DNA from: a virus
Virus record (IMG/VR): IMGVR_UViG_3300045988_167691
Length of the DNA: 64,000 bases
Reading direction: 5' to 3' (one strand)
The notes beneath the pieces are model-generated. The model ran no database searches. It had not been told where the DNA came from and saw nothing but the letters and a program-made list of their open reading frames with translations. The position numbers were made by a program, and so were the translations under genes. This document shows, in pieces, positions 2,609 through 51,672 of the stretch (its first letter is position 1; each line of letters opens with the position of its first letter).

Positions 2609-5134
2609 TTAAATGCTTTCCATCTTTTGTTCGTCAGACTTTTTCTTCCTTGCCGTCTTTTTCGCTTCCTTCCTTTCAGATATTTGGTTGTACATCTCCA
2701 TTGTCCGTCCCCTGTGATAGAACCTGCGCTTGTCATAATTGGTGGCAATCGTTATCACTTCTTGACTTTCTTTGTAGTCACGCAATTTGTCCACATAAAT
2801 ACGTGCCGTGCCGTTGGACTTTTCCTCTATTGTCATATTTAACGTGAACACAAAGGAAAAAGGTTTTACAAGTGTCTTGTCTCCTTCCGTATAGGAACGG
2901 TCTATTACTTTGTCAGGATTGTTCCATACTTCAAAAGGCACATCACTTGTTTGTGTTGCTGTGATAATAGGAGCTTCAATCTCGTCGGCAAGGTTCTTTA
3001 GAAGCTGCGCACAAGTCTGTAGCTTTTCTTTCTTATGATCGGGATCACTGTCTATCTTTTTGGAAATGCCGGTCTTTACCAAATCCAATGAATCCAAAAC
3101 TACCAACCCAGGAAAACGCCCGTGTGTATTGAAATAGTCGTAGCATAGCTGCCTTACATCGCTCATAGAAGCCTGTCCGAACTTCTTGAAACCGTACACC
3201 TCTATATCTGAACCGGCTTCTTTAATTTCTTCAATCGCCTTTTCGATCTTTTTCTTATCGTTGGGATCAATGTTGCCTGACTTGATATTGGAATAGGACT
3301 GGTTTGACCAAAGCTGATCATATATCTGCATACAGGCTTTAACGCCACCTTCCAATTGAATATGAAGAACCGGGACACCTCTAAGGGCAGCAGAATAGCC
3401 GTGCCATTTTAATACAGTCGTGTTGTGAGTAACGATAAAATCATTTGTAAGAAAAAGTCCTTCTTTTCCTGACACTTTTATGCACTGCATTTCTTTTATG
3501 CCAATATATTCAACGGACACAATTCTTCTTTCAACAAAATTCTTTTTCTTAGGATTTATCTCTCTTTCGTGTTTCCTTGAAAGATGAAATAAATCTAATC
3601 CTTTAGGAGGGGTGATTCTCAATCTATATCTGTATTTACAAATAACCCTTTCTCCTTTTTTGTTTACATAAGAAGCTCTTTTTGGTTCTGATATTTTACA
3701 CAAACATCCTAATGACCTTGCAATAAAAGTAGCGTCTTCTATTAATTGTTTAGAAGATAGAGAAAGTTCTATTTGTCCTGTTTTTTCAACATACCCGTCT
3801 GTATCTAAAAGCCCTCTAAGAACCTCTAATCGAACATTCTTATTGTTGAAAATATAATCTTTTGGAATAAACTTTTCGTGAGAAAGTTTCCCAAAAAGTC
3901 CGTATTTTTTTAAGTAATAATGAAAATTATGTTCACTTTCCCCTTTATTAATCCTATACGCATACCTTGCTACATATTTAAGGTATATCTGTTCTGGGAA
4001 CTTCAATTTTTCCATAATTTCATTGTCTGGCAACGTTACAGTTAAATTACCAGCTTTATCAGAAAAACTTCCATCGCCTAATAAAACGCCTAACGTATAA
4101 GGATCAATAAAAACTTCTTTTTCTCCTAAATCAACGCCTTCCACCAATGGTATAGAAAAACGAGGACGCGGATAAGAACCGTATCTTACAATATTGTTTT
4201 TAGTAAGATATTTTTGTCCGTTATGGTGTCCGCCAAATTTAATTCCTTTCTCCATCATTTCCGACAAAGGCATAGTTTCATAACCTTTTGAGTTGTGATA
4301 ATTATCCCATATCGTCCAAAGATGATCTTTGCTACAATCAACAAAACTTCCATCTGCAAAAGTTACTCGATACGCTTTCTTTCTTCCTTGAGGATATACG
4401 CCAACTATTGTTTGAGTACCGCCTTTTCTATCACAAATAATATCCCCTACCTTAGCATCTTTCATCAAAATATAACCAGTAGGAGTGAGAATTTTGCTGT
4501 CCAAAGTCAACGCTTTACCCGTACCACTGCGAGCAATCCAAAGCGTTGTGTCCCCTATTTCCATGCCACCGAAAGATACATCGTCCAACCTGTCGATTCC
4601 AAAAGGAATTTTTACTGGCTTTTCCGTTATCGTAGCAGCTTCCATGCGTCTTTCAATCATACGTTGCTGGAAACCCCCGAAAACAGACTGAAAACCCCCT
4701 GATTTGGAACGAAAAGACATCTCCACAATCCTTTGCGATTCTTCCGCGTTCACACGGATAGCTTCTTCCTTCTTTCCTTCTTCGTAAAGGTCATGTACCC
4801 TTTTGGAAAGAAGTTCGAACTCCGTCTCTTTCACAAACGATTGAAGTTGGTCTATTGCTATTTCTCTGTCTATCAGATTGGCTTTCTTTATTTCCTTTGC
4901 AGCATCCAACACAAAGTCATTATCAGAAAATTTTTGACAGATAGCACCAAGCGCGGGAAGCTTCCCCTTTTCTCTATATTGATCGACAGCTTCTCTTAGT
5001 ATGAATTTGTATCCAGACCATTCTTTAGGGATCAATTCATATTTCAGATGCTCCGATGCTATGCACATTATGACTTCATCCGAAAACATCAATTTAAATA
5101 TTTCGGACATAAAGCCAGGATTCAATTTATTCAC
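2609..5134 (-). CDS. DnaB-like replicative helicase, interrupted by an intein
   Basis: The 841-aa ORF has a Walker A motif (ARSGTGK|TT) split by a 364-aa insert and a Walker B-like LVVLDSLD. It is adjacent to the primase. The spliced size would be 477 aa. Confidence 0.8.
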   Translation of the reverse strand: MNKLNPGFMSEIFKLMFSDEVIMCIASEHLKYELIPKEWSGYKFILREAVDQYREKGKLPALGAICQKFSDNDFVLDAAKEIKKANLIDREIAIDQLQSFVKETEFELLSKRVHDLYEEGKKEEAIRVNAEESQRIVEMSFRSKSGGFQSVFGGFQQRMIERRMEAATITEKPVKIPFGIDRLDDVSFGGMEIGDTTLWIARSGTGKALTLDSKILTPTGYILMKDAKVGDIICDRKGGTQTIVGVYPQGRKKAYRVTFADGSFVDCSKDHLWTIWDNYHNSKGYETMPLSEMMEKGIKFGGHHNGQKYLTKNNIVRYGSYPRPRFSIPLVEGVDLGEKEVFIDPYTLGVLLGDGSFSDKAGNLTVTLPDNEIMEKLKFPEQIYLKYVARYAYRINKGESEHNFHYYLKKYGLFGKLSHEKFIPKDYIFNNKNVRLEVLRGLLDTDGYVEKTGQIELSLSSKQLIEDATFIARSLGCLCKISEPKRASYVNKKGERVICKYRYRLRITPPKGLDLFHLSRKHEREINPKKKNFVERRIVSVEYIGIKEMQCIKVSGKEGLFLTNDFIVTHNTTVLKWHGYSAALRGVPVLHIQLEGGVKACMQIYDQLWSNQSYSNIKSGNIDPNDKKKIEKAIEEIKEAGSDIEVYGFKKFGQASMSDVRQLCYDYFNTHGRFPGLVVLDSLDLVKTGISKKIDSDPDHKKEKLQTCAQLLKNLADEIEAPIITATQTSDVPFEVWNNPDKVIDRSYTEGDKTLVKPFSFVFTLNMTIEEKSNGTARIYVDKLRDYKESQEVITIATNYDKRRFYHRGRTMEMYNQISERKEAKKTARKKKSDEQKMESI
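3422..4513 (-). mobile_element. intein with LAGLIDADG homing endonuclease in the helicase P-loop (aa 208-571), class-3-like
   Basis: The insert starts with ALTLDSKILT directly after GTGK and ends with FIVTHN|TT. It has two LAGLIDADG motifs (LGVLLGDGSF, LRGLLDTDGYV). Block B reads SKDHLW, block F reads MQCIKV and block G reads VTHN. Boundary codons were checked in the DNA: gcg at 4513..4511 and aac at 3424..3422. Confidence 0.8.
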
Positions 5135-5145
5135 GATACCAAATT

Positions 5146-7245
5146 TTAAACCAGATTAATGCTAAAACCACTGCTTTCACCTTCCTCACGTAAGGTATTT
5201 ATTGCAAACCAGCTTGAGAGGCATAGATCGTCATGTCCTGAACTTGCTTCCAGTTTTCCTTTATCGCTTCTAAAAGTGATAGAAGAAAATTCACTAAACA
5301 TCAATTCCACCTTTTCCCTTGTCTCGCCCTCCTTATAAGGCGTTCTGATTTGTCCTCTTTCAAACATAGCAGACAAAGACGGAAGTCCGGTGTACAAGTC
5401 CTTCTTGTTTCCCTCCGTAGTGGTAAATTGTTCGATATTGGTAAGTCCTCTTTCTCTTGCAAGTGCTGACAATATCCCTTGGAATCCGTTAGCCTCGCAC
5501 ACGATCTTGTCAGGCTTATACAGACGATTGAAAAGAACAATCTTGTCCACCTGCTCATTGTGAGACATACCTTTTGCCCTGAAATAATTCACAAGATGGT
5601 AATTACCAGAAAAGTCAACTCCCCAAACGGAATAGACGGTGTAGTCAGCACCAATATTACCGGAAACAGCAAAGTCGCATCCCACTACCACCCTTTGAAG
5701 TTCGAACGGATAAAACTCTATGCTGTCCGCAAAGGAAACCTTATCCATGCCGGTAGTTGCCCTTCTAAGATATTCATATGGGAAAATAGTTGAGTTGTCC
5801 GAAATAGGAATCACAAGGTACTCTCGTGCAAACACAATAGAACCAAGTTCTGTCCTTTTCCTTTTTATATCTTCAAACATATACCTGTCAGGAGCAAGAG
5901 GTCGTCCGTCCGGGAATATGATAGGATATTCAAACAGATAAAAACGCTTATCTCCCTTAATGACATTGTACAATTCGTTAGGAGCAGTAGAATAAGGCGT
6001 ACCTGACACAATCAGATATCCGTAAGGCTCAACAATAGGAGTAATAGTCCCTCTAAATGTTTCCTTTAGCTTTTCTCTTTGCTCATCACTGTAAAGAGAA
6101 CTTTCATCTGGCATATCATCTATGATTGCTGCTCCAACGTGCAAACCACGAATAAAACCATCCTTACCACGAACATGAAGAATCGCACCATTTTCACCTT
6201 CTATTGCCGTTTCTCCAAGTTTAGCCTTGCCGTTCGGATCAAGTTTTTCCTTCAATATATCATTGGTGGATATTTCCTCTATAATCTTGTTCACATGCAC
6301 TTTTGCAAGTGTCATTGTATTTGTGATCATAGCGGTTTCTTTCCGGTTCTTGTTGTCTATCGTATCCCCTCCATACAACATAGGACGTGTATAGGAGTAT
6401 AACCTCCATAAAGGGAACGCATAGCACCACTCGAAGCTGTTGTGCATTACTGTGCCGTCAGCGAGCAAAAACTTATGATCTCCGTCACAAGCAAAACCGT
6501 AATACTCACCTTCATCCAGTAAGGTTATAAAGATTTCCGTTTTCTTGAATTTCCCATCTCTTGAAACTCTGTAACCTTCATATTTAGTGCCTCTCCTTTG
6601 GTTCATTTCGGCGATTTCAACAGGAATGTAAGTACCGTCAGCAAGACAAAGGATGTGTCCTTCGCTTACTATATAGCTATCTCCGCCTTTCTGTCTTACT
6701 TCGTACATATAGGTTTCTCCGTGATGCAGTTCCAAGACATTGCGACATTTCAAGTCTTGTCCCATCACCTTGTCACCTACTCTTATATCCTGGACTTTTT
6801 TTAACGAACCATCTGCCATAACTATCAAAGTATCAGGAGAAACGCACTTTCCACTACTTCGCGAACACAAATAACTACTCCAAGGAAATAGCTGCGTAAG
6901 ATTCCCCCATTCCAAGTTTCGCCATCCCATATTGAAATTAGAAAGGACTGTCGCCTTGAAATAATTAAAAGACAGAATCCTTAGATTTTCATCCATTGAA
7001 GCAAACAGATTGTCCACATACCCCAGCTTTTCCGTGTCAAGCGAACGTCCAAAATTCATGGCATACTCGGTCTGATTGATTATAGTGTCTAACATTTTAT
7101 CCAAATCCTTTCTGCTGCCACCAGAAAACAAGGATCGCACAGTAGTGGAAGGAAGTCGGTCTATAATATCGTCCACCGTTGCAAACAACCTTTTTGACTG
7201 TAGCTCGGTAAGTATTCCTCCTTTTGAATTATATATGACTGCCAT
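5146..7245 (-). CDS. terL: terminase large subunit, interrupted by a mini-intein
   Basis: The 699-aa ORF has a Walker A motif (SRSSGK|S) split by an insert and a Walker B motif (AAIIDDMPDES). It also has RNase-H-like nuclease aspartates (GCDFAVSG..ADYTV, GHDDLCLS). The spliced size would be 563 aa. Confidence 0.85.
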   Translation of the reverse strand: MAVIYNSKGGILTELQSKRLFATVDDIIDRLPSTTVRSLFSGGSRKDLDKMLDTIINQTEYAMNFGRSLDTEKLGYVDNLFASMDENLRILSFNYFKATVLSNFNMGWRNLEWGNLTQLFPWSSYLCSRSSGKCVSPDTLIVMADGSLKKVQDIRVGDKVMGQDLKCRNVLELHHGETYMYEVRQKGGDSYIVSEGHILCLADGTYIPVEIAEMNQRRGTKYEGYRVSRDGKFKKTEIFITLLDEGEYYGFACDGDHKFLLADGTVMHNSFEWCYAFPLWRLYSYTRPMLYGGDTIDNKNRKETAMITNTMTLAKVHVNKIIEEISTNDILKEKLDPNGKAKLGETAIEGENGAILHVRGKDGFIRGLHVGAAIIDDMPDESSLYSDEQREKLKETFRGTITPIVEPYGYLIVSGTPYSTAPNELYNVIKGDKRFYLFEYPIIFPDGRPLAPDRYMFEDIKRKRTELGSIVFAREYLVIPISDNSTIFPYEYLRRATTGMDKVSFADSIEFYPFELQRVVVGCDFAVSGNIGADYTVYSVWGVDFSGNYHLVNYFRAKGMSHNEQVDKIVLFNRLYKPDKIVCEANGFQGILSALARERGLTNIEQFTTTEGNKKDLYTGLPSLSAMFERGQIRTPYKEGETREKVELMFSEFSSITFRSDKGKLEASSGHDDLCLSSWFAINTLREEGESSGFSINLV
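6439..6846 (-). mobile_element. mini-intein (136 aa, no endonuclease domain) in the TerL P-loop (aa 134-269)
   Basis: The insert begins CVSPDTLIVMADGS directly after SSGK, has block B VSEGHIL, and ends TVMHN|S. Boundary codons were checked: tgc at 6846..6844 and aac at 6441..6439. Confidence 0.8.
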
Positions 7246-7901: not shown

Positions 7902-9234
7902 CTCTACATCAGGTAACTATATATTAGTTTATACTAACACATATTAGTTAATAAATTTCTTAACTGGGTTATACTCAAACCCTGTATAGGGTGGCATTAC
8001 TGCATCCCCTTTTACTTTTCTCATGATGTTATAACTTCCGTTGACATCAGCATTAAGTAAGATCCCATCTTTTGTTTTAAAAAGTCCTCTTTTTACTCTT
8101 TTACCAACGTAAGTATCATGATGTTCCACAGATTCTAAATCAAAAGAACTGCATTTTGACGTATGAGATTCGTTTACTTCAACAAATCTTAGCCCTTGTC
8201 TTTCTGATTTATACCTTAACATTGATATGAACATATCGAAAGGAATTGAAACAAAATTCTGATTGTTTCTTTTCCCAAGATTGGATTCTTGCTTCCATCC
8301 GTCATTATGTCCGACTATCAATGTTGTTATATTATCTTCCAAACAAGTATTGATTATTTCTTTACTTGCCTTGTGAAGATAATCCTTTGCTTTGTTGTTT
8401 CTCTTTCTTGTAAGAGACATTAACCGTCTTGAATTTTCTTTTCCATTTACTTTTTTTAATTGTTGTTGAATTTTCGATCTTTTCTTGTTGTAATACTGAT
8501 TGATGGATTTTAATTTCCTTCCATCAATCAAAACAGGTTTATTGTTTGTATTAGTTACAATAGAAGCTAAATTGTTTACACCTAAATCAATAGACATGAC
8601 CCTATTGTTATCGGGAAGCTGTTCTTTTACAGAAGATTCATAAACAACTTCTATAGAATAACAATCTGCTTTAGGAATAAACCGAACTTGTTTTACAGAA
8701 CCTTCTTTGCAATTCGTTTTCAAAGGTGACAGCCCTTCTTTCTTTGGAAAGAAAATGAAGTTTCCTTTGTGTTTAAACTGAGCATAAGAATAAGAAAATA
8801 CATTTCTACCTTTTGTTTTATGTTTATATCTCGGAAACTTAGGACAACCGGTAAACTTTTTGTTATCCCGTTTCCAAGACTTGATAGCAGAAAAATAAGA
8901 TTTTAGGTTCTTGTCTAAAGCCATAAGAACTTGTTGAGAAGAATTTGCACTCATTGCTCTATAGTCTATATTATCCTGTTTTCTAAACATACTATCAAGA
9001 TCAGTATATCTTATCCACTTTCCCGTACTAAGAAACTCTTTCTTTATTGTATATAAAGCAGCATTATACAAGTTCTTAGACAAGAAACAAATTCGATCTA
9101 AATCTTTGTATCTCTTATCATTTACAGAAATAATATGTTGTTCTACCAAATACATAGTGCAAATTTAAATAGAATATTTGAAATTTCCTATTTAAAATCT
9201 ACAACTTTAAATATTTCTGTAAACTGGTATATAG
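7902..9234 (-). mobile_element. solo-tnpB IS200/IS605-type (IS1341-like) element, exact ends not determined
   Basis: The tnpB ORF plus its 42-bp and 79-bp AT-rich flanks lie between two unrelated phage genes. No Y1 TnpA is present. The downstream flank contains a small hairpin (TTAGT-TTAT-ACTAA) and a direct repeat (ATATTAGTT). Confidence 0.5.
7944..9155 (-). CDS. tnpB: TnpB (OrfB) RNA-guided nuclease family protein
   Basis: The 403-aa ORF carries the RuvC triad: D in MSIDLGVNN, E in VNESHTSK and D in LNADVNGSYNI. It has the lysine-rich bridge KKRSKIQQQLKK...RKRNNKAKDYLHK. The zinc-finger region is degenerate (one Cys plus HH). Confidence 0.9.
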   Translation of the reverse strand: MYLVEQHIISVNDKRYKDLDRICFLSKNLYNAALYTIKKEFLSTGKWIRYTDLDSMFRKQDNIDYRAMSANSSQQVLMALDKNLKSYFSAIKSWKRDNKKFTGCPKFPRYKHKTKGRNVFSYSYAQFKHKGNFIFFPKKEGLSPLKTNCKEGSVKQVRFIPKADCYSIEVVYESSVKEQLPDNNRVMSIDLGVNNLASIVTNTNNKPVLIDGRKLKSINQYYNKKRSKIQQQLKKVNGKENSRRLMSLTRKRNNKAKDYLHKASKEIINTCLEDNITTLIVGHNDGWKQESNLGKRNNQNFVSIPFDMFISMLRYKSERQGLRFVEVNESHTSKCSSFDLESVEHHDTYVGKRVKRGLFKTKDGILLNADVNGSYNIMRKVKGDAVMPPYTGFEYNPVKKFIN

Positions 9235-19269: not shown

Positions 19270-21285
19270 TTATTTTGCTTTTAAAGTTTGTAAATAGTTA
19301 TATGCTTTGATACAGTCGTCTTTGGAGAGGAGTTGATCGTTGTAGATGCCTAAGTTTTTTAGGGCTATTTTGGTAAAATTTGATTCATAAAAACCTAAAA
19401 ATAAACGTTTTGAAATATCAATATCACTTCCAATAGGATAAACTTTGTATTTATCCCATTTTTCATCATACACCCATCCATCAGAAGTCAAAGCGTTAAT
19501 CTTTTTACAAGAAAAAGGATAGCTTCTTAAACCCTGTTTTAAATAAATCCTCATTCCTGTTATAGCATTATAGATGTAAATTTGATTTGCTTTCAATAAT
19601 CCTGCATTATCTTTTCTATCTTCCATAAACTTCCAATCACCAACAATGGTAAATTTATCTGCGAATTGAATTGGTTTAGCACTGATTATTCCATCATCCA
19701 CCCCATCAGTAATGAGGTATCCTTCGTATTCGGGGATTTGCTCAACTAAAACATCTACTTCTTGTGAAGAATTATACCATATACCATTTGTCGAAGTTGC
19801 AGCATACTGTTTTTGGAAAGTGTATGTACCATCTTCATTAACGCTAATATATTCACCGCTTTTGTTTGCATTTCCAATAAAACAACGATCACCTTCTTTC
19901 ATGCCTGTGATACGTATCTTCCAATCAGCAGAATTAGATGTATTTAATAAAACCAAAGCATTACTGTTGTTCCCAGTTCCGATTATTCTAAATGAATCTT
20001 TTTTTACATCTGTGGGCTTAACTACATTATCTTTAAGATTAAATGAGTTGAAGTTATATGCATACAACCCATACCCACTCCCTTCTGCAAACCCAAAATT
20101 AGACAGCACAAGATCATTACCATTGCCCGTAATGTTGGCAATAGTAGCACGATCTTCGTCCTCATTGGTTTTGCCGGTGACAGTCCATGCCTGGTCGGGG
20201 AAGAGCCAGGGATAGGTTTTAACGAAGTAGTCTTTGATCTTGGTCAGCTCTTCTTCAGTGGCATCGTGGTCGAGAAATACAAGTTCCCAAATAGCAGCGT
20301 TAATACAAATTCCTACATTTCTTGTAGCTAATTTTCCAACATATAGCACATCTGTTCCTGTAAAATTACCAGTTATAATCGAAACACCATTATAACTTTT
20401 AGATGTCTGATAAGTAAGGATGTGTGGTGAATCCTTTTCACTCCCTATTGTTCCAAAAGACATCGGACGATTAAAATAATTGGTATTTACATTACGATAT
20501 TCTAACAAGAAGGCACCATCATTGAACCAATCCTTTACATTAGATACTAATCCTGAGACTATTTCACCCCTTGTAATCCACTGTCTCAACGCCACAACCG
20601 TATATCCCTTTTCTTTAGTCAGAATAGGGAAGTTATCACAGGTACCGTAATCATCTACTCCGTCAAAAACGAGTGCACCGGGGTAGAGAGGTAGTTGTTC
20701 GATGGTGATATTGCATGATTCCTGTAATTTTAAGAACCTGAATCCGTAATAAGCTTTTTTAGCTCCAAAATCAAAACTTGGTAGATGATATATACCATCA
20801 TTTTCAATTCTCATTATAACAGTTGCTTGTGTCCCATTCGAAACATATTCAATTCCTTGTCCGTCTGTTAAACCAGAAACTTTGATAGTACATGATAAAA
20901 CCCTAAATCCAGTATCACTTAGTAATGATTGATAAAATAATTGAGCTAATCCATTATCCTTTATTGATCTTGCATTAAAAGACTTATAAGTCCAAGTGAC
21001 ATCAATTCTTGATTCTACCTTATACCATTTATTACTATTATAGTTCTCTGTATATCCACCTACCCCACTCATTCCACCCCAAGCAAAATTCTTCATCTGT
21101 AAATCATGTCCATTGCCTGTAAGGTCTTTCCATACAGGGTTCTCTGCCATCTGTTCATTAGTAAGACCTAATGCTGAATACCTTGCAATCATACCAGGTA
21201 CAGATGGGAAAGGAGTTACTCCACCCCCTCCCCTAAATCTCCTAAAAGGAATTGCATTAATATTTCCTATTAAATTCATTGTCAA
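19270..21285 (-). CDS. tail-fibre-associated protein with an internally duplicated module
   Basis: The 671-aa ORF has two similar segments: DLTGNGHDLQMKNFAWGGMSGVGGY and NITGNGNDLVLSNFGFAEGSGYGLY. A lectin/LamG-like fold is only a guess. Confidence 0.5.
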   Translation of the reverse strand: MTMNLIGNINAIPFRRFRGGGGVTPFPSVPGMIARYSALGLTNEQMAENPVWKDLTGNGHDLQMKNFAWGGMSGVGGYTENYNSNKWYKVESRIDVTWTYKSFNARSIKDNGLAQLFYQSLLSDTGFRVLSCTIKVSGLTDGQGIEYVSNGTQATVIMRIENDGIYHLPSFDFGAKKAYYGFRFLKLQESCNITIEQLPLYPGALVFDGVDDYGTCDNFPILTKEKGYTVVALRQWITRGEIVSGLVSNVKDWFNDGAFLLEYRNVNTNYFNRPMSFGTIGSEKDSPHILTYQTSKSYNGVSIITGNFTGTDVLYVGKLATRNVGICINAAIWELVFLDHDATEEELTKIKDYFVKTYPWLFPDQAWTVTGKTNEDEDRATIANITGNGNDLVLSNFGFAEGSGYGLYAYNFNSFNLKDNVVKPTDVKKDSFRIIGTGNNSNALVLLNTSNSADWKIRITGMKEGDRCFIGNANKSGEYISVNEDGTYTFQKQYAATSTNGIWYNSSQEVDVLVEQIPEYEGYLITDGVDDGIISAKPIQFADKFTIVGDWKFMEDRKDNAGLLKANQIYIYNAITGMRIYLKQGLRSYPFSCKKINALTSDGWVYDEKWDKYKVYPIGSDIDISKRLFLGFYESNFTKIALKNLGIYNDQLLSKDDCIKAYNYLQTLKAK

Positions 21286-21294
21286 TTCCTTTCC

Positions 21295-21621
21295 TTAAAA
21301 ACCTATACTAAGATTGGTTGCCGTTGTCCCTTCTTTCAAAATCTTCTGAACCATGTACATGAGTGGCATTCCTATATTTGCACTCACTTCCGCTTCCGAA
21401 ATGGTATATTCCATTCCACCTGAAAGGATTACCTTAATTGCCCCTTCGGAAAGAGGAATAACTACAAACGGAACTTCTTGTCCGTTTTGGTCAATCAGCA
21501 CAATATCTTCTTCAATTGTGGCAAAATTCCATGCACTGCTGATTAAAGAAGGTGCTGCTTCACCATTAGTAGTTATCAGCTTATTGGAATTAGCTGTTAC
21601 TGTTCTTTTAACTATATCCAT
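21295..21621 (-). CDS. hypothetical protein
   Basis: The 108-aa ORF is the first gene downstream of promoter candidate 21668..21700. Confidence 0.5.
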   Translation of the reverse strand: MDIVKRTVTANSNKLITTNGEAAPSLISSAWNFATIEEDIVLIDQNGQEVPFVVIPLSEGAIKVILSGGMEYTISEAEVSANIGMPLMYMVQKILKEGTTATNLSIGF

Positions 21622-21667
21622 GATTATGAAATTTTTAAACGTTTAAAACAAAGTATATACTTACCCA

Positions 21668-21700
21668 CAAAAATAACCTTTCTTTTTGAGAAAATACAAA
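21668..21700 (-). promoter_or_regulatory. Bacteroides-type promoter candidate (-33 TTTG, 21-nt spacer, -7 TATTTTTG)
   Basis: On the minus strand TTTG (21700..21697) and TATTTTTG (21675..21668) lie upstream of the ATG at 21621. The site sits just outside the left inverted repeat. Confidence 0.4.
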
Positions 21701-22504
21701 ACCTACCTTCTTTTCTTTCGCCAATCCAATTACCAATTAGATACATCATACAAATACGTTTCCCTTTTGATAGTTGGAAGGGGAGGTTACGGTAAAGATA
21801 CCGACAATGCTCCAAATGCGCCTGAATGGTATGGAGGTTGCATGGGTGGAGACAGTGCAATTGTTGCTTATCAGAAGAATTTTATAATAAGTCAATCTAT
21901 AGACGGAATGTGGAGATATGAAACTATAGATTTCAGAAAATCAATATCAGGAAACATGGGTCTTTACGTAAAATTTGTGTGTTATGGCTCTACATATGAA
22001 GTGTTTTTGGGCGATCAAAAAAATGGACAAGAACATAGAGATACATATTGGTTTTTCAAAGTGAACGGGCAAGGAAATCTTTCGCCGTTCATTTATGGTA
22101 GAAACGAAGGAGGTCTCGCAACACCTGAATTGGTTGCAGGAGCAGGAGGAAGTAGCAGTAGCGGACAGTATAGTACATCTATTTCTGGTATGAAATACGG
22201 TGGGGTAGGTGGAGATGGAAGATATGGCAATCAAGGTCCAGAGTATAATTCAGGACTAAAAGCTGATTCTACTATCCCTGTTCAATCTATTTTTGGAGGT
22301 ACAGGGTACGGAGCAGGGAGTTATTTCGCTTCAACCGACAACTGCAAAGCCGGCGGCGCGGGAGGTTATGGAGATGGAAGTATGAACGGCAGAGCTGGAT
22401 ATGGTGCTGGCGGAACAGCTTTCAAAATATCTTCATCTTCAACTGATTTTTATAATGAAGGCAACGGGATTGTCTGCTTGTATTATCATAACAACCCTCT
22501 GTAA
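21686..22504 (+). CDS. alternative glycine-rich tail-fibre tip cassette (paralog of the C-terminus of the 2297-aa fibre), probably silent in this orientation
   Basis: This is the only protein-like plus-strand ORF. Residues 13-34 (QSNYQLDTSYKYVSLLIVGRGG) are encoded by a sequence identical to aa 2017-2038 of the fibre. It shares IPVQSIFGGT, GGAGGYG-type G-rich blocks and the terminal C(L/I)YYHN.P(L/I) with the fibre tip. I found no plus-strand promoter upstream. Confidence 0.7.
   Translation: MRKYKTYLLFFRQSNYQLDTSYKYVSLLIVGRGGYGKDTDNAPNAPEWYGGCMGGDSAIVAYQKNFIISQSIDGMWRYETIDFRKSISGNMGLYVKFVCYGSTYEVFLGDQKNGQEHRDTYWFFKVNGQGNLSPFIYGRNEGGLATPELVAGAGGSSSSGQYSTSISGMKYGGVGGDGRYGNQGPEYNSGLKADSTIPVQSIFGGTGYGAGSYFASTDNCKAGGAGGYGDGSMNGRAGYGAGGTAFKISSSSTDFYNEGNGIVCLYYHNNPL
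21721..21787. repeat. inverted repeat, left copy (67 bp, perfect)
   Basis: The sequence ccaatccaattaccaattagatacatcatacaaatacgtttcccttttgatagttggaaggggaggt is the exact reverse complement of 23340..23406. I checked this base by base. Confidence 0.95.
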
Positions 22505-22543
22505 ACAAAAAGAAAAGGGAGAGTGAAAAATATGCTCTCCCTT
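22505..22543 (-). terminator. terminator candidate between the two convergent tip cassettes
   Basis: Hairpin AAGGGAGAG (22515..22523) / CTCTCCCTT (22535..22543) is followed on the minus strand by TTCTTTTTGT. Confidence 0.55.
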
Positions 22544-22559
22544 AATGATTCTCAACAAG

Positions 22560-25500
22560 TTATATAGGTTCGTTGTGGTAGTATATACAAAATATACCTT
22601 CTCCTGGTCTTGTAATATTTCCCGCATCATCATCTGCCGGAGAAGATTCTTCTCCAGAACCATACCCAGCAATTCTTGTCTTTCCTCCGTCTGGAGAAGT
22701 GAAATAAGAATCACCATAGCCTGCGCCTCCATATGCGGATGCACCAGTTCTTTGTCCAGATAAAGTGTTCAAATACCCAGCTCCACCTTTACTTGTACCA
22801 CCAAAAATAGATTGGACAGGAATAACAACTGAGGATTGAATAGGTTTAGTCACTTTTCCCAAAACAGTATCTTCATAAGAACTTTTAAATCCATATTTAC
22901 CATCTCCACCTGGTGCACCGTCTGGTTGTATTCTTAGACCTGTAGAAGGATAAGTTTCTTCTTTTGCGTTTTGGCTTCCCGGACTTCCACTACAATAGAA
23001 TGTACCTATCATGTGGGCAGCAAAACCACCGGAACTTTTTGCATTATATACAGAATAATTGCCCAATCTACTTCCTTGTGGCATGGGGAGATCGGCATCA
23101 TTTTGAGCATTACCTTTCCCATTATAGGCTCTACATTCATAAGTTGTTATTCCTAATCTTATGGAATACTCTGTGCCTTCTGTCCAACTGCCTGTATTTG
23201 GTATAGAACTAAATGTAATTTTATTTATTTGGCCATTTGAAATATCCGACATCAATATATTAGGAATATACACAATTTGTCCAGTTGTTCCACCCATCAA
23301 TACAAATTCATTCCAAGAATCCCAATACTCAAATTTTTCACCTCCCCTTCCAACTATCAAAAGGGAAACGTATTTGTATGATGTATCTAATTGGTAATTG
23401 GATTGGTCACTTGTTATCTGCACCAACTTGTTCGGTTTAGTTAGGGTGTATTCCAAATTCACACTTGTTTGATAAACCCCACTTATACTTCCTGTCGTTG
23501 AAAAATCACTGAAACCAGAAGATGTAATCTTAATCTGATAATTTCCCGCAGGAATTTTGTCAAACCGTGCCGTGTATGTTGCTGGTCCTGCCGAACCTGT
23601 ATGCTTCTGCCCTTCTGAATCTGTAAATTCCACATTACCACCAGTAGGGTTTACTTTTACTTGCACCATATACAGCGGAGTAAGATTTACTTGCACCTGC
23701 ATTCCTTCACTGTTCACAGTAATGCTTTGGGATGTTTCTTTGGAAAAATCCCCTTCCGGTACATACAAGATATACTGTCCGTATGCGACATTGGCGAACG
23801 TTACGGTAGTGGTTATATTTTTAGTCTGAATCACCTCTAGCCCCGTACTGTCCTTTAGTTGGATTTGGCTTGGCATACCTTGCATTTGTCCAACTCTTCT
23901 TACCTGAACATTCAGAGCACTGTATATCTTCTTTAAAGAAATATTTATCTCTTTAGAAGAAGTTACATAGTCCGAATAGACTGTGTTTTCATAGCCACTC
24001 TTTTCTACGGTAAAGATATTTGAGCCACTCTTTACCGTAAGAACAGCATTCCCTTGCGAATTTGTAACGCCCGTTACTTTTACATTCCCGTTTTCGGCTG
24101 TAACCTTTGCGCCTGAAACAGGAGAACCGCTTGATGTATTCTCCCTTACAGTTACAGTTACACTCACACCCTTTTCCAATGTAACAGAAATACTTTTTAT
24201 TTCAGAAATAACACCAGTTTCTCCAGTTGCAGTCATATATCCATCGGCAGCAACTTCATAACTGAATGACTGTCCTAATGGGACATTTATTCTTGCCACG
24301 CCATCTTGTCCTGTCGTACCGGAATATATTTTCCCATCAGTTTCCGATACAGTAATCCTTGCACCCTCTAAAAAAGTTGTTCCGCTATCGCCACCATACA
24401 CCAAGAAAAGCAATGTTGTAGTTGAAGAAATAAACACTTCTTGATTTACAGAGGGCAAATGAACAGACATAAAGCCTTTTTTAGGCTGCAATGGTAAAGG
24501 TGGGGTTACCACATAATCATAACTTCCATACAAAACTTTATTTTCTGGAATATCCGAACTTTTTACCTTCTTTCCGTAGAAAGAGAATGTGATATTCAAA
24601 TCTTTCAAATCATCTGCGGATAATGTACCTCCGTCAAAAGATTGCACATACACTGACCAAATGGTAGGATTACCTATTGTTTTTGTATCCAACAAAAGAT
24701 CAGAAAGCTGGAATCTTTGAATTACATCATTTTCCATCTCCACCGTTAAGGGAGCGTTTTGCGAGCCATAAGTTATAACTATCTTCAGATTGGACGGAAC
24801 ACCACTTACCTTAAAACCAAAATCCAAAGCCTTGTGATAATCCACTGTCTTTTCTGTGCCAATTTGGAAAAGACCATTCGAAAACCCTATAAGTCCGGCA
24901 TCCACATTAAACAAAACATAAGTCTCTGTAGAAGCTGTCGATGTCTTAATTACACTCGTTAAAGTAAGGTTCTTTTTCGTTTTATCCCAGCTTCCCTCCC
25001 AGCCATCTATTTTATTTGAATTGTAAATTCTGGTAAGACTTTCCGTAATACCACCATTATCCTTATCCTGAACAATTGTCAATGGAGAAACAATTACACC
25101 ATTGGGGAAATAGGTTTTTAATTGATCTGTTGTTACACCTTCCGATGGAACAAGATATTTTTCATCTTCTTGAAAAACAGGACAACCGGAAAAATCCGCA
25201 TCGCTGTCTTGTGACCACTCAAACTCTCCACCATCAAACGTCATAATAGCAACACCACTGCTGTTTGTAGTTCCTTTATATTTATTGGAAGAGTTATTTC
25301 GATCAACCATCGTCACGACAGCGTTTTCTATTGCAGTATTTTCATCTTCAACCTTGACGGTAAACTGGACATCTGATATTTGCTTCATTTCAAAGCTAAT
25401 ATCAGCCTGTCCATTGCTTACCGTAAACTCGCCACTAAAATCCAAATAGCCGTCTTTTGTTGCTGTATAAGTGTAATTCCCGTTTCTGTTCTGGAATGTA

Positions 25501-28500
25501 GCAACACCACTCGATGCTTTGCCTGAATCAATCACCGTGCCAGGAGCTTCCTTTCTATAAATATTGATATCTGGATTTGCATAAGCAGGCGTTATCTGAA
25601 ATATAATGCTATACTTCACGTAATCAGTAAGGTCAATATCAACCTGTTTCGCTTGTAATCCAACTTCAAAGCTGCCGTCCGGTACATCTATCAAATCAGA
25701 ATTATTGCTTTCGTCAGTCGGGATCGAATAAGTATAGCTCCCCTCCGGTAAAGAAATAGTAGCTATTCCACTTTGATTAGTAACGATCGTTTGGGGAAGA
25801 ACCCTTTGTGTCGCACTATTTACTACAATCTTAACATCTGACTTGACACTGTTACTTACTATTGTCTTAAACGTGACAATAGCTCCCCGTATCATCGTTA
25901 TACTTACACTCGTTTCAGCTTCGTTTACCCTTACCGTGCCGTTCCCAGATTGATAACCTTCCTTCGAATAGGTGTATGAATGTGTACCTGTAGAAAGATT
26001 TGTTTTTGCTGTACCATCCTGTGTTGTTGTGATTGTTTCTGCGTTATCTATAACAATTTTAGCACCATCAACAAAACCTCCTTCTTCGTCTTTTACAGTA
26101 AATGTCGTTTCAAACCCAAAAACCAGTTCAACTGCTTTTTCTTGGTCGGCATCCTGTATGCTGCCTACACCTTCTTCTGGTGAGTATCCTGCAAGTAACG
26201 CACCCCAATCATAAGCACCGTTTATTACCTGTACAGGGTCAGTCGTACCATCGTCTTTTGTTTTGAGGCTTACAGTGTTCCCACTTAATATGGCTGCACC
26301 ACTCACACTGACGGCTACATCCTTTAATCCTGATTTTCCTGCGGCAGTCACTTTAAAGGTAAGATTCCATATCTTCTTTAAAATCTGTGTAAACGTTTCC
26401 TCTTTTGTTACTTCAAAAGGTAGTTCTTCACCCTTATACCCTTCTTTTGAAAATGTAGCCGTGTATCGCCCTGCTTTCAATTTTAAAGTAGCTTCACCAT
26501 TTGTTCCGGTAACAAGAGCTTCTTCTTTACCGGAAATCCCAATAGATACGCCTTGCAAAAGATTGGGGGAACTCATATTGTCTTTTGCAATAAACGTAAT
26601 ATTGTAAGACATAGGAACAAGCTGCACCAGCACATCTTTATTGCTGCCAGAAACCGATATGCTACCTTGTGTCTGTACATATCCGTCTTTTGTTACAGTG
26701 TAAGGGTAATCTCCATCAGAAAGACGAACTGTTACCAATCCACCCTGCGAAGTCTGATAGTCCTTTTCGTTGATATGAATATTAGCGTTTTCAATTGCAA
26801 CACCTTCATCTGTCTGTACAGTAAATACAATATCGTATTTCTTGTACTCCATATTTACAGGGAAAGACGGAATATCCGCACTTACAACTTCCAGCTCGCC
26901 TAAATAATCGTCCATACCATTGGCAACCACCGTAAACGGATATGTACCATTTTTTAACTGCAAGGACACCTCACCATTATCCTGTGTCTGATAAGACGTT
27001 GCATTTATCTCCACTGTAGCCCCCTTAATAGGTTCTTTCAATGGATTTTTTACCGTCATTATGACATTGTAAAGTCTTGCCTTTAAACTTATTACACTAC
27101 TGTTATCACTGTCAAGAACAGTAACCGAAGAACTGCCGTCATAATATCCCGACTTTGTTACGGTATAAGGATATGTCCCGTTTTGAAGGCTTGCAACAGC
27201 TTGACCTCTTTCATTTGTAGGATAAGAAGAGCCATTGATATTTACTGCTGCTCCTTGTGCCGGACTACTGTTATCACTGTTCTTGACAGTGATAACCACA
27301 TTATAATGTTTCAATACAAGGGTTCTTCGAATTAATGTATCCTGTCCTTCTACGTTGAACGATCCGGTCAAATCATCATATCCCTTTTTCTGCACGGTGT
27401 AGCTGTAATTTCCACTCTTTAATTTTATAGTAGCTTGTCCAGAACCGTTTACATTCAATACTCCCGGCTGTCCTTCTATTTTGATTGTAGCTCCTTCTGC
27501 CGGATTCCCCTGATTTACCTGCGAAATATTAAATTCCACATTGTATAAAAAGAAATCCATCTCAAAGGTAACGTCCGCATTCTGGTTGTTGACCTTAATT
27601 TCCCCCTGTAAAGTATCATACCCTGTCTTTTCGATTGTTACAGGATATTCACCATTTACAAGTGGTATTTCCACCTCTCCATGCTGGCTCGTAAGATATT
27701 CTCCATTGTTCACCTTTACAATGACATTCGGTATAAGCTGATTTTCCTTATCCTTTACAATGACAGTAATCGTCCATACCTTAAATTCCAATTCAGGATA
27801 TACTTCTTTATCTCTACCATCCACAACTACACTGCCGGAATACTCATCATATCCCAACTTTTCAATAGTGTAGGGATAGTTCCCGTTCCTTGCGGACAAA
27901 GAAGCCACACCTTGCAAATTGGTAGTGGTTGTTCTGTTATCCATCGTTACATTTGCATAAGGAACAACCCCTCCCTTTTCGTCCGTCATATGGAAAGTGA
28001 CCGTATAAGGAGCTAAAACCATTTGTACATCAATGAAAACACTACCGTTCAACACTACAAACATTCCTTCTGCGGGGATATATCCCGAAGCGGAAACAAT
28101 ATATTCATACTGTCCGTTTGCAAGTTGGATAATAGCTTGTCCGTTGTCATTAGTTACAACCGCATTGTTTCCTATAGAAATATTTGCACCCTCAACAGGT
28201 CTCCCATCCGAATCTGTTACATTGAAATAAACCTCTTGATAAAGGTTAAGTGAACTGTCATTAATACCCACAAACAAATCTTCCGATTCTGCCGGATAGA
28301 ATAGTGGTGAAAGGTTGCTGTCAGAATCGTACAAAACATTGCCGTCTTGATCTCGCATAACGAACCCTCTGATACGCGGTAACTGGTTTGCCGGAACTTG
28401 CTGGTCGTAATACGGAAAAAAGTATTCGTCCGGCACATATTTTACACCATCGGTCTTTTTTACAATATCCAGCAAATCGTCCCATTCTACGATTTTTCCA

Positions 28501-29453
28501 GGTGTCCAAAAACGAAAATCAAGATATTTAGTAAGGCTCACTTGTATGTTCTGACGCACAGTAGACACATCGTAATCCGGTTGAAGCTGAACACGGAAAT
28601 CCAACCCCCTTTCTGAACCCACATAGAACCAATCAATATTCTTGATACCAATACCAACTACTTTCCCTTCAATATTCAGTTCTGAAATACCAAAATATCC
28701 TTGTGCGCTTTCAAGAAGTGTATCAAGTTCTTCTTCGGTAAAGAAAATACCGTTCTGCGAAACAACATAGAGATTATATATGCCCTTTTCGTCCAGACCG
28801 GCACTCATTACTTTTAAGACACGATCGTCTATGTTGCTAAGTGTCTGTGTCCAGTATTCTATTGTATTCTTGCTAAGGATATTCAGATTGTTCTTAATAC
28901 GGATTCTAAACGTTTCATCATCCTCACTATCACGTCCTCCAATAGCATAATATTCATTCGTACATTCGATATGACCTTGTGGCTGCGGAGAAACATTAGT
29001 AATGCTATTAGGCGGTACGTTTGTGGAATACCCTGCGTTGATACTTCTTACCTTTACATATCCGTAACCACTTTCCCCTACAGTCAATGCTTCGTCAACT
29101 TGGAAACGAATACCGTTCTTGTTCACAAAAGTAACGTCAGTACCATACACAGTACCAGGATCAGCAGACACCCTTATATATGTCGAAGAACCCAAAGCAC
29201 CTTTACGCGGGCTGACACCATACAAAGCAGCAGCCTTATCCAGATAAACGCCTGTAGCTGTATCTGGAAATATCTGCGCTTCCTTTATGGCAATATCCTT
29301 CATTGCCTTTTGAGCAACTTTCGCTACACCGAATGCCGTAGCATTCACAACCGAACCGTCAGCTACATTACTTACCTTGGCAGTCTTATCCAAAAACATC
29401 TCTATAAAGAGATTTTTCAAATTGGTTATCGTTGCACTTGTTTTTGTAATCAT
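22560..29453 (-). CDS. baseplate-J-like protein fused to a giant tail fibre with a glycine-rich tip
   Basis: The 2297-aa ORF has an N-terminal ~200 aa resembling the Baseplate_J family (..AGYSTNVPPNSITNV..YAIGGRDSEDDETFRIRI). These are followed by more than 15 CarboxypepD_reg-like repeats (G..V..A.V......T...G.A...L.NG.Y.YT..K.GY). The last 259 aa are a G-rich tip. Confidence 0.8.
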   Translation of the reverse strand: MITKTSATITNLKNLFIEMFLDKTAKVSNVADGSVVNATAFGVAKVAQKAMKDIAIKEAQIFPDTATGVYLDKAAALYGVSPRKGALGSSTYIRVSADPGTVYGTDVTFVNKNGIRFQVDEALTVGESGYGYVKVRSINAGYSTNVPPNSITNVSPQPQGHIECTNEYYAIGGRDSEDDETFRIRIKNNLNILSKNTIEYWTQTLSNIDDRVLKVMSAGLDEKGIYNLYVVSQNGIFFTEEELDTLLESAQGYFGISELNIEGKVVGIGIKNIDWFYVGSERGLDFRVQLQPDYDVSTVRQNIQVSLTKYLDFRFWTPGKIVEWDDLLDIVKKTDGVKYVPDEYFFPYYDQQVPANQLPRIRGFVMRDQDGNVLYDSDSNLSPLFYPAESEDLFVGINDSSLNLYQEVYFNVTDSDGRPVEGANISIGNNAVVTNDNGQAIIQLANGQYEYIVSASGYIPAEGMFVVLNGSVFIDVQMVLAPYTVTFHMTDEKGGVVPYANVTMDNRTTTTNLQGVASLSARNGNYPYTIEKLGYDEYSGSVVVDGRDKEVYPELEFKVWTITVIVKDKENQLIPNVIVKVNNGEYLTSQHGEVEIPLVNGEYPVTIEKTGYDTLQGEIKVNNQNADVTFEMDFFLYNVEFNISQVNQGNPAEGATIKIEGQPGVLNVNGSGQATIKLKSGNYSYTVQKKGYDDLTGSFNVEGQDTLIRRTLVLKHYNVVITVKNSDNSSPAQGAAVNINGSSYPTNERGQAVASLQNGTYPYTVTKSGYYDGSSSVTVLDSDNSSVISLKARLYNVIMTVKNPLKEPIKGATVEINATSYQTQDNGEVSLQLKNGTYPFTVVANGMDDYLGELEVVSADIPSFPVNMEYKKYDIVFTVQTDEGVAIENANIHINEKDYQTSQGGLVTVRLSDGDYPYTVTKDGYVQTQGSISVSGSNKDVLVQLVPMSYNITFIAKDNMSSPNLLQGVSIGISGKEEALVTGTNGEATLKLKAGRYTATFSKEGYKGEELPFEVTKEETFTQILKKIWNLTFKVTAAGKSGLKDVAVSVSGAAILSGNTVSLKTKDDGTTDPVQVINGAYDWGALLAGYSPEEGVGSIQDADQEKAVELVFGFETTFTVKDEEGGFVDGAKIVIDNAETITTTQDGTAKTNLSTGTHSYTYSKEGYQSGNGTVRVNEAETSVSITMIRGAIVTFKTIVSNSVKSDVKIVVNSATQRVLPQTIVTNQSGIATISLPEGSYTYSIPTDESNNSDLIDVPDGSFEVGLQAKQVDIDLTDYVKYSIIFQITPAYANPDINIYRKEAPGTVIDSGKASSGVATFQNRNGNYTYTATKDGYLDFSGEFTVSNGQADISFEMKQISDVQFTVKVEDENTAIENAVVTMVDRNNSSNKYKGTTNSSGVAIMTFDGGEFEWSQDSDADFSGCPVFQEDEKYLVPSEGVTTDQLKTYFPNGVIVSPLTIVQDKDNGGITESLTRIYNSNKIDGWEGSWDKTKKNLTLTSVIKTSTASTETYVLFNVDAGLIGFSNGLFQIGTEKTVDYHKALDFGFKVSGVPSNLKIVITYGSQNAPLTVEMENDVIQRFQLSDLLLDTKTIGNPTIWSVYVQSFDGGTLSADDLKDLNITFSFYGKKVKSSDIPENKVLYGSYDYVVTPPLPLQPKKGFMSVHLPSVNQEVFISSTTTLLFLVYGGDSGTTFLEGARITVSETDGKIYSGTTGQDGVARINVPLGQSFSYEVAADGYMTATGETGVISEIKSISVTLEKGVSVTVTVRENTSSGSPVSGAKVTAENGNVKVTGVTNSQGNAVLTVKSGSNIFTVEKSGYENTVYSDYVTSSKEINISLKKIYSALNVQVRRVGQMQGMPSQIQLKDSTGLEVIQTKNITTTVTFANVAYGQYILYVPEGDFSKETSQSITVNSEGMQVQVNLTPLYMVQVKVNPTGGNVEFTDSEGQKHTGSAGPATYTARFDKIPAGNYQIKITSSGFSDFSTTGSISGVYQTSVNLEYTLTKPNKLVQITSDQSNYQLDTSYKYVSLLIVGRGGEKFEYWDSWNEFVLMGGTTGQIVYIPNILMSDISNGQINKITFSSIPNTGSWTEGTEYSIRLGITTYECRAYNGKGNAQNDADLPMPQGSRLGNYSVYNAKSSGGFAAHMIGTFYCSGSPGSQNAKEETYPSTGLRIQPDGAPGGDGKYGFKSSYEDTVLGKVTKPIQSSVVIPVQSIFGGTSKGGAGYLNTLSGQRTGASAYGGAGYGDSYFTSPDGGKTRIAGYGSGEESSPADDDAGNITRPGEGIFCIYYHNEPI
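23340..23406. repeat. inverted repeat, right copy (67 bp, perfect)
   Basis: It is the exact reverse complement of 21721..21787 and lies inside the 2297-aa ORF (codons 2016-2038). Confidence 0.95.
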
Positions 29454-51474: not shown

Positions 51475-51672
51475 CTACTTTGATTTTTGACTAACCATTT
51501 TCTTCGTCAAGTCCATTAACATATTGTTTATCTGTGTCGAGAAAATGACCTGCGCCATCCCTTCATAACCTTCTTGTACTTTAGGATAACGCATAGGGTC
51601 AACATGATGATGTATATTTGACACCAACGGCATTTTCTCGACTTTTATGTTCTTTACATATCGAACGTTCAC
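51475..51672 (-). CDS. hypothetical small protein
   Basis: The 65-aa ORF lies between the portal and MuF-like genes and overlaps the portal stop by 4 nt. Confidence 0.4.
   Translation of the reverse strand: MNVRYVKNIKVEKMPLVSNIHHHVDPMRYPKVQEGYEGMAQVIFSTQINNMLMDLTKKMVSQKSK

Follow-up and report, generated by a model that had tools for sequence, protein, structure and literature searches.

Does a pair of perfect inverted repeats (IRs) that brackets two opposed versions of a tail-fibre tip mark a switch that turns over in nature, and if so, what turns it? The question is raised by IMG/VR virus record IMGVR_UViG_3300045988_167691, a stretch of 64,000 nucleotides analysed here at its full length (the window), in which a giant baseplate-J/fibre gene on the minus strand ends in a tip that begins at one copy of the repeat, while a second, silent tip begins at the other and faces it. 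We hold, with moderate confidence, that this is a flipping cassette of two alternative fibre tips and that its inversion is most likely driven by homology between the repeats.

The two arms, IR-L at 21721..21787 on the side of the neighbouring gene p108 and IR-R at 23340..23406, are 67 nt long, lie 1552 nt apart and proved 100% complementary in a repeat search, as a preliminary description of this DNA had claimed in calling one the exact reverse complement of the other. They form the sole long perfect IR of the 64-kb window, and a 29-nt piece of the arm occurs exactly 2 times where 100 shuffles led us to expect 0 occurrences. Both arms are coding. IR-R encodes residues 2017-2038 of the 2297-aa fibre, at the joint of constant shaft and variable tip, and the plus strand of IR-L reads the same 22 residues, QSNYQLDTSYKYVSLLIVGRGG, in frame, ending at residue 34 of an opposed plus-strand open reading frame (ORF); translation confirmed this earlier observation as well. 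Because cassette-less relatives have the same coding sequence, we take IR-R to be the ancestral copy. Between the arms lies the invertible segment (21788..23339, 1552 bp), which holds two converging tip cassettes with a terminator between them, and an intergenic leader (21622..21720) separates IR-L from the next minus-strand gene.

The fibre gene (22560..29453, minus strand) encodes a Baseplate_J N-terminus, then repeats (at least 10 CarboxypepD_reg-like repeats by Pfam), the joint motif and tip A, the expressed C-terminal 259 aa with the stop codon (22560..23339, minus strand). Tip B occupies 21788..22504 on the plus strand (238 aa and a stop codon), within an ORF of 272 aa (21686-22504) that opens with TTG. 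Past the arm the tips are ~29% identical, with glycine-rich blocks, the motif IPVQSIFGGT and a C(I/L)YYHN end in common, which bears out their description, at 259 and 238 aa, as diverged yet paralogous. Orthologues of tip A are 51-92% identical and those of tip B 69-99%. The hairpin previously placed between the converging tips (22515..22543, minus strand) folds as a 9-bp stem with an 11-nt loop (dG -18.9 kcal/mol, z -2.7); its U-rich tail, UUUCUUUUUGUUU, is found only on the fibre (minus) strand, and it resembles an intrinsic terminator for the fibre transcript. An equivalent hairpin lies 3' of the fibre stop in cassette-less relatives.

The tips presumably bind a receptor, since they end a fibre attached to the baseplate, are rich in glycine, diverge rapidly and have weak fold matches to phage tail-tip and fibre proteins. 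Neither tip matched the PDB by sequence search at E ≤1, and the Pfam match of tip B to Gly_rich_2 was weak and below the cut-off. The predicted structure of tip B (predicted local distance difference test, pLDDT, of 70) found as its best Foldseek matches Bxb1 tail-tip proteins (E 4e-3, template-modelling score ~0.3) and a cyanophage fibre; these are too weak to name a fold. The tail itself was judged contractile from Baseplate_J, sheath-initiator and tube-initiator matches.

In the present orientation the fibre ends in tip A, its transcript would stop at the central hairpin, and tip B would lie antisense and unexpressed. The arms are the coding sequence of the shaft-tip joint and its copy at the far end of the cassette, and recombination between them would invert the segment, bring tip B into frame behind the unchanged shaft and leave tip A silent. 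Metagenomes were scanned for the junction expected after a flip (constant region joined through the arm to the start of tip B), and ENA contig ORRL01000107 showed such an arrangement: the fibre there runs in frame into a tip-B orthologue, beyond which come the hairpin and, in the opposing direction, tip A. Further flipped contigs are L029, L030, L206, L207, L208 and the contig carrying P0065 and P0070, and the NCBI nr protein DAL02626.1 (P0057) is likewise a fibre fused to tip B. Overall, tip B is fused to the fibre in L028, L029, L206, P0057 and P0065, and L029, L030, L206, L207 and L208 keep tip A opposed to the fibre and unexpressed.

The closest pairs of genomes are nearly identical apart from orientation. 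Contigs L208 and L006 share 99.98% identity over 5179 nt of the fibre in the same direction, and 100.000% over the 1673 nt of the segment and arms, reversed. Compared with L206, both L210 and L209 have flanks of 99.8-100% identity and a reversed segment of 99.88% identity, with alignments that overlap exactly over the arms. The inverted segment of L029 aligns, reversed, with that of L006 in the reference orientation at 99.2% identity and pairs with it at 99.5% in the comparison of segments, and the inverted segment of L206 is 93.5% and 92.5% identical to those of the reference-orientation L008 and L007, whereas L029 and L206, both inverted, are only 88.3% identical to each other. Because inverted segments pair by identity with different reference-orientation genomes, the flipped state arose at least twice; L207 is another flipped lineage, with a different arm (YKYISLLVVGRGG). 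Arm markers bracket the crossover between positions ~9 and 66. The preliminary description had suggested that inverting 21788..23339 would swap the tip in frame and that relatives should be compared for both orientations: near-identical genomes do hold both, with in-frame fusions and with breakpoints inside the arms. These comparisons support the view that the 1552-bp segment is a naturally flipping cassette whose flips are recent and recurrent.

That the flipped contigs were instead mis-joined through the repeat during assembly is barely credible. A 67-nt repeat can confuse assemblers with k <67, and L029 is a scaffold of unknown k. The key contigs L208, L206, L210 and L030, however, have names beginning with k127_ or k141_, which suggests k-mers longer than the arm; if this prefix, by naming convention, gives the final k-mer size, every junction was read directly by single k-mers reaching across the arm and into both sides. 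The flipped state also occurs in at least seven contigs from independent samples and in one NCBI nr protein, and the fusions in the flipped contigs are clean and in frame.

A different objection would grant the flipped genomes and deny a working switch. The plus-strand ORF would then be a separately expressed second adhesin or an exchange reservoir, its arms kept identical by gene conversion, and the flipped genomes would be rare by-products fixed by chance. We consider this improbable, although several observations lean towards it. In ~94% of cases the orientation is the one that expresses tip A, mosaicism between lineages breaks at the joint, and tip B is under purifying selection although usually 'silent'. 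The ratio of non-synonymous to synonymous substitution rates (dN/dS) is 0.22 for tip B (dS ~0.9); tip A stands at 0.29 and the constant region beside it at 0.43. Tip B is intact in 12 of the 13 IMG/VR cassettes, the exception being that of L202. These values indicate purifying selection on the silent tip, and on the same grounds we rejected a dead duplication relic. One clade, moreover, has an arm with an ATG (SMLLVGRGG) that gene callers take as a start, and where the window has TTG at 21686 the relative P0005 has ATG.

Signals for expression of the plus-strand ORF nevertheless speak against a separate adhesin. The cassette-bearing relatives have no start codon in common ahead of the arm: L154 and L183 have just 8 open codons before the arm, with no ATG, GTG or TTG among them, and the window-type arm also lacks ATG. 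The leader (21622-21720) looks like ordinary intergenic DNA, homologous to the intergenic region of cassette-less relatives, and its length and start codons vary between lineages. On the minus strand, p108 is preceded by a Bacteroides-type -7 box (TAnnTTTG, 21675-21668); none was found on the plus strand upstream of the cassette. Thus, of the earlier argument for a silent cassette, the absence of a promoter-like element stood, whereas the ATG start assigned to the ORF did not: the start is the TTG at 21686, an in-frame ATG at 21626 runs into a stop, and the ORF has no in-frame ATG upstream of the arm. All window genes with a family match lie on the minus strand, and the plus-strand ORF is antisense to every other gene. 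Across the whole window, raw counts of TAnnTTTG are 62 on the coding (minus) strand and 24 on the plus strand; these strand counts fit a Bacteroidota host.

The relatives point the same way. It had been proposed that relatives carrying the plus-strand ORF as an independent gene, with no repeat, would count against a switch; we found no such relative, since genomes have the cassette together with the repeat or neither. At least two origins of the flip, with pairs 0-2 substitutions apart, are hard to square with rare accidents, and diverged arms can accompany decay of the cassette, as in L202, where tip B is frameshifted and the arms are mismatched.

We then come to the arms themselves, whose behaviour across lineages bears on what turns the segment over. 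The layout recurs in eight IMG/VR contigs of 54-106 kb, with IRs of 65-68 nt, five of them perfect and the others 98%, 97% and 89% complementary. In lineages farther off the perfect IRs measure 39-42 nt and one decaying IR ~47 nt, so that arm lengths between lineages fall at 39-42, ~47 and 67-68 nt. The arms match within most genomes and differ between lineages, with variants that include CCAATT/CTCTT/TTCTT, ACATCA/ACTTCT, GGAAGGGGAGG/GGGAGAGGGGG and ACGTTTCC/ACATCTCC; in the last two, the arms of the distant lineages use other synonymous codons, GGGAGAGGGGG for GGAAGGGGAGG and ACATCTCC for ACGTTTCC. Contig L002 has a private C-to-T change in both arms. Only one stretch, TACAAATAC, is invariant across all arm types. 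Judged by their sequences, the arms evolve in concert.

With p108 as the anchor of a survey, 54 IMG/VR contigs could be evaluated, and 13 of them carried the cassette. The 41 cassette-less contigs mostly run from the fibre stop through the hairpin and ~145 bp to p108, with a few variant arrangements. Compared with them, the insertion extends exactly from the arm through the tip-B stop, right after the terminator, as a bare indel of ~0.8-0.9 kb, and a comparison of cassette-bearing with cassette-less contigs found no gene linked to its presence. The shaft-tip joint also appears as a breakpoint of mosaicism between lineages: L187 (the L004 contig) differs from the window by a dS of 0.35 in the constant region and 1.6 in tip A.

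Some relatives depart from these layouts. In L202 (IMGVR_UViG_3300045988_162676) the tip-B cassette is frameshifted and the arms are mismatched, and in L003/L170 (…_163890) the arms are only 89% complementary; both are apparent decay states of the switch. In L009 (MT835500.1, an UNVERIFIED GenBank scaffold) a 932-bp gap corresponds to window positions 21682-22613. The scaffold thus lacks IR-L, the whole of tip B and the hairpin, tip A is short of its final 17 codons, and the fibre ends in an unrelated 37-residue tail in place of the conserved CIYYHNEPI end. We rejected this scaffold as a natural cassette-less ancestor because of the missing tip-A codons; it is a deletion or an artefact. In L162, L164, L181, L184 and L201 a short fibre of 314-445 aa precedes p108 instead of the giant one. 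The short fibres P0018, P0020 and P0022 (420-445 aa) have the joint KLVQITS.QSNYQLDT.YKYVS and a glycine-rich tip, and P0031 starts with MPKLVQITSNQSNYQ and may be a cassette with a longer shared piece.

What, then, inverts the segment? Pfam scans covered every window ORF of ≥90 aa, with PHROGs applied to the larger orphan proteins, and were extended to a total of ~100 kb of a ~104-kb genome pieced together from the same and closely related genomes. For L033 and L034 (same sample, identical proteins) we used precomputed Pfam matches of called genes and scanned six L034 ORFs directly; L039 and L109 (a close cassette-less relative) and the ORFs unique to cassette-bearing contigs were scanned as well. 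Across these ~100 kb neither Pfam nor PHROGs returned a Resolvase, Phage_integrase or Recombinase domain. No serine invertase lies beside the segment, the neighbours p108, p671 and p218 being without a Resolvase domain. The preliminary remark that no serine or tyrosine recombinase is visible therefore holds for the 64-kb window and for ~40 kb more.

Individual candidates fared no better. The gene next to the switch, p108 (21295..21621, minus strand, 108 aa), has no assigned function and no Pfam or PHROG match, and it is 81-99% identical in 57 IMG/VR contigs. We rejected it as a hidden invertase because it is equally present with and without the cassette, has no family match and is unlike the tips; p671, also without a family match and unlike the tips, was rejected too. 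TnpB is an RNA-guided nuclease, not an invertase, and the TnpB gene of the window (7944-9155) was rejected as the recombinase on its OrfB_IS605/Cas12f-like identity and its variable position between relatives.

The genome is, by contrast, furnished with general recombination and replication functions. A contig of the same strain encodes a RecA_N/Rad51/RecA_C protein, a Metallophos protein followed by an 803-aa protein, a pair that looks SbcCD-like, and a DnaE-type polymerase; at least 66 IMG/VR contigs share the RecA gene. The relatives L039/L109 add UvrD, an SNF2 helicase, an NAD-dependent ligase and RNase H, and other matches were to DNA_pol3_alpha and, weakly, to Toprim. This gene set resembles that of the 'Gratiaviridae', for which the passage on that group in PMC8008677 gives DnaE, DnaG, SF1 and SF2 helicases, SbcCD, RecA, a contractile tail and Bacteroides/Parabacteroides hosts. 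The carrier looks like a non-integrating phage: the scans turned up no integrase, and none of 185,579 representative bacterial genomes contained an exact copy of the constant-plus-arm pattern.

Since no invertase is recognisable, since the arms vary in sequence and length between lineages and are identical within a genome, and since the phage has a RecA and the joint is a mosaic breakpoint, we favour a flip driven by homology. The candidate enzymes would be the phage RecA-family recombinase, acting in recombination-rich replication, or the host RecA.

A sequence-specific invertase is less likely. The same switch could be worked in trans by a recombinase of this kind, either a host Bacteroidota invertase acting on a short core of the arm or an unrecognised phage orphan, and we treat this as a serious if doubtful alternative. 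Isomeric genomes are 0-2 substitutions apart in 1.67 kb, which implies an efficient reaction; several phage ORFs, 380-435 aa in length, could not be assigned to a family; Bacteroides genomes carry many invertases, some of which act on distant sites; and the invariant TACAAATAC could serve as a core. That stretch, however, amounts to the Y-K-Y codons of a conserved protein motif, and the arms differ widely between lineages yet each is a perfect IR, with an outer boundary that ranges over 39-68 nt. The lineage of L207, with its different arms, is also flipped, and both the domain scans and the search for a gene linked to the cassette came back empty. We give little credence to the more specific proposal that the phage borrows a host invertase that also flips capsule or surface-protein promoters. 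If it were true, the choice of tip by the phage would be coupled to the phase-variation machinery of the host, and both surfaces would switch together in an infected cell.

Several points weigh against a homology-driven switch, some touching the flip itself and others its mechanism. Tip A is expressed in all 13 cassette-bearing IMG/VR contigs and in the window, and likewise in all 18 contigs that match the constant region and arm; a protein collection holds ~110 distinct silent tip-B sequences against <10 silent tip-A sequences, and the exact in-silico flipped ORF of this strain is absent from a collection of 15 billion proteins. The isomer pairs derive from different assemblies. For RecA-type recombination to be efficient, 67 bp is a short repeat, and some lineages have only 39-42 bp. 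Of the sequence scanned for recombinases, ~20 kb came from a cassette-less relative, and in the cassette-bearing contigs only the ORFs differing from it were checked; a new recombinase could be hidden among the several orphans that lack a family match, one of 423 aa in the window (59430-60701) and others of 380-435 aa in relatives. The genome is not obviously purged of recombinogenic repeats, because a perfect 300-nt direct repeat persists (54856-55155 and 55483-55782, 627 nt or 209 codons apart), and once it was found we dropped 'repeat avoidance' as a sign of a recombination-proficient genome. Finally, the receptor-binding role of the tips is read from their position and composition, with a model at pLDDT 70 and weak fold matches.

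In its design the cassette is close to the Mu G (Gin/gix), P1/P7 C (Cin/cix), e14 P (Pin) and p15B Min systems. As in these, the IRs lie at the junction of constant and variable parts inside a tail-fibre gene, alternative C-termini are opposed and swapped in frame, and the alternatives share a single promoter and a single constant part. Mu in lytic growth is found mostly in one orientation, according to a statement quoted in 10.64898/2026.02.14.705889, and this parallels the tip-A bias of the present phage family. Unlike the Gin, Hin, Cin and Pin systems, the locus has no adjacent or detectable serine invertase, and its arms are 39-68 nt of ordinary coding sequence that varies by lineage, whereas theirs are conserved crossover sites of 26-34 bp, built as two half-sites around a 2-bp core and used together with a Fis-dependent recombinational enhancer (for the arms, half-site symmetry was assessed by eye). 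Inversion here moves only the two tips and the terminator, with no tail-fibre assembly gene among them, and whereas the carriers of Mu-type segments are temperate phages or plasmids of enterobacteria, the carrier here looks non-integrating. The cassette works like Mu G and is not a member of the Gin family.

A second comparison is with the Anabaena cyanophages Elbi, A-1(L) and A-Lf14, in which genome isomerisation between IRs has been described, homologous recombination during recombination-rich replication being one proposed cause (10.64898/2026.02.14.705889). There, as here, orientation is independent of phylogeny, both isomers are real and no dedicated recombinase has been identified. Their IRs, however, measure 500-700 bp and enclose a segment of ~30 kb of whole genes, with no protein re-spliced; the IR described here is ~10x shorter (67 bp), its segment is 1.55 kb, and the crossover falls inside a reading frame and yields a different protein. 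Plastid IR flip-flop and the L/S isomers of herpes simplex are further cases of homology-driven isomerisation. In the distal tail-fibre locus of T-even phages, recombination at conserved motifs swaps adhesin specificity. That locus shares with ours a short coding motif at the shaft/adhesin boundary as a recombination linker, and glycine-rich tips; the exchange there occurs between genomes, whereas here a spare module is inverted within the same genome in an intramolecular, reversible reaction.

A survey of programmed inversions (PMC9881135) describes tyrosine-recombinase shufflons (type I restriction-modification hsdS, SusC/D, PilV), with tail-fibre targets in prophages only. Those loci also have intragenic IRs of conserved coding sequence and silent inverted C-terminal cassettes, and tail-fibre genes are an enriched target class; they are chromosomal or prophage-borne and typically come with a recombinase gene, unlike the present locus, where none was found. 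Diversity-generating retroelements (DGRs) of Bacteroides phages diversify tail-fibre tips (PMC6199706, PMC8008677) and so represent another route to tip diversity in gut Bacteroidota phages. We rejected a DGR here, since no scan returned a reverse transcriptase domain, the repeat is inverted and perfect, and there is no template/variable pair of direct repeats; the variation is binary, between two stored tips, and not mutagenic. A 2026 report (PMC13501310) claims to describe, for the first time, putative invertons in gut viral genomes assembled from metagenomes, its highlighted example being a Microviridae capsid gene. Our targeted keyword searches of the literature returned no description of this fibre-tip switch.

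To our knowledge, tail-fibre inversion, a textbook host-range switch since Mu, has always been a device of temperate phages with their own serine invertase. The same switch logic would here operate in contractile-tailed phages of the human gut, a widespread family with genomes of ~100 kb, in a device reduced to ~0.8-0.9 kb: a second tip and a copy of the 22-codon joint. If homologous recombination drives the flip, any phage could gain a reversible host-range switch by keeping an inverted spare tip, and searches keyed on an adjacent recombinase would miss such switches. Bacteroidota, the presumed hosts, evade phages by phase variation of their surfaces, and a binary switch on the side of the phage would be a counter-move to such a surface.

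Other features of the window lie outside the cassette. A second, imperfect IR of 32 nt (27091-27122 and 27276-27307, 84% complementary, 153 nt apart) falls in the repeat-domain region of the fibre gene and is also conserved in L028. The 300-nt direct repeat lies within the gene of a 609-aa BACON-domain protein (54718-56547) and may reflect either a domain that was duplicated in frame and has stayed identical or a duplication introduced by assembly. TnpB-like genes (OrfB_IS605 and Cas12f1-like TNB) occur at 7944-9155 in the window, 6725-7909 in L029 and 2626-3849 in L034, with no TnpA noticed nearby; that of L029 has inserted into the tail-gene region, at a distance of two genes from the switch. 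Three essential genes of the window (2609-5134, 5146-7245 and 51669-54704), those for a DnaB-like helicase, the large terminase and the portal protein, are interrupted by inteins or homing-endonuclease domains (Hint, LAGLIDADG, Intein_splicing). Lastly, a 132-bp patch at 21079-21210, in the N-terminal part of the 671-aa protein encoded at 19270-21285, is 91.7% identical to the gene for gp068, a hypothetical protein of the crAss-like phage cr1_1 (Culoivirus americanus). We rejected a crAss-like identity for the window, since this patch is its sole match to cr1_1 and the rest of the cr1_1 genome is unrelated; the patch suggests exchange of a tail-protein module between two orders of gut phages.

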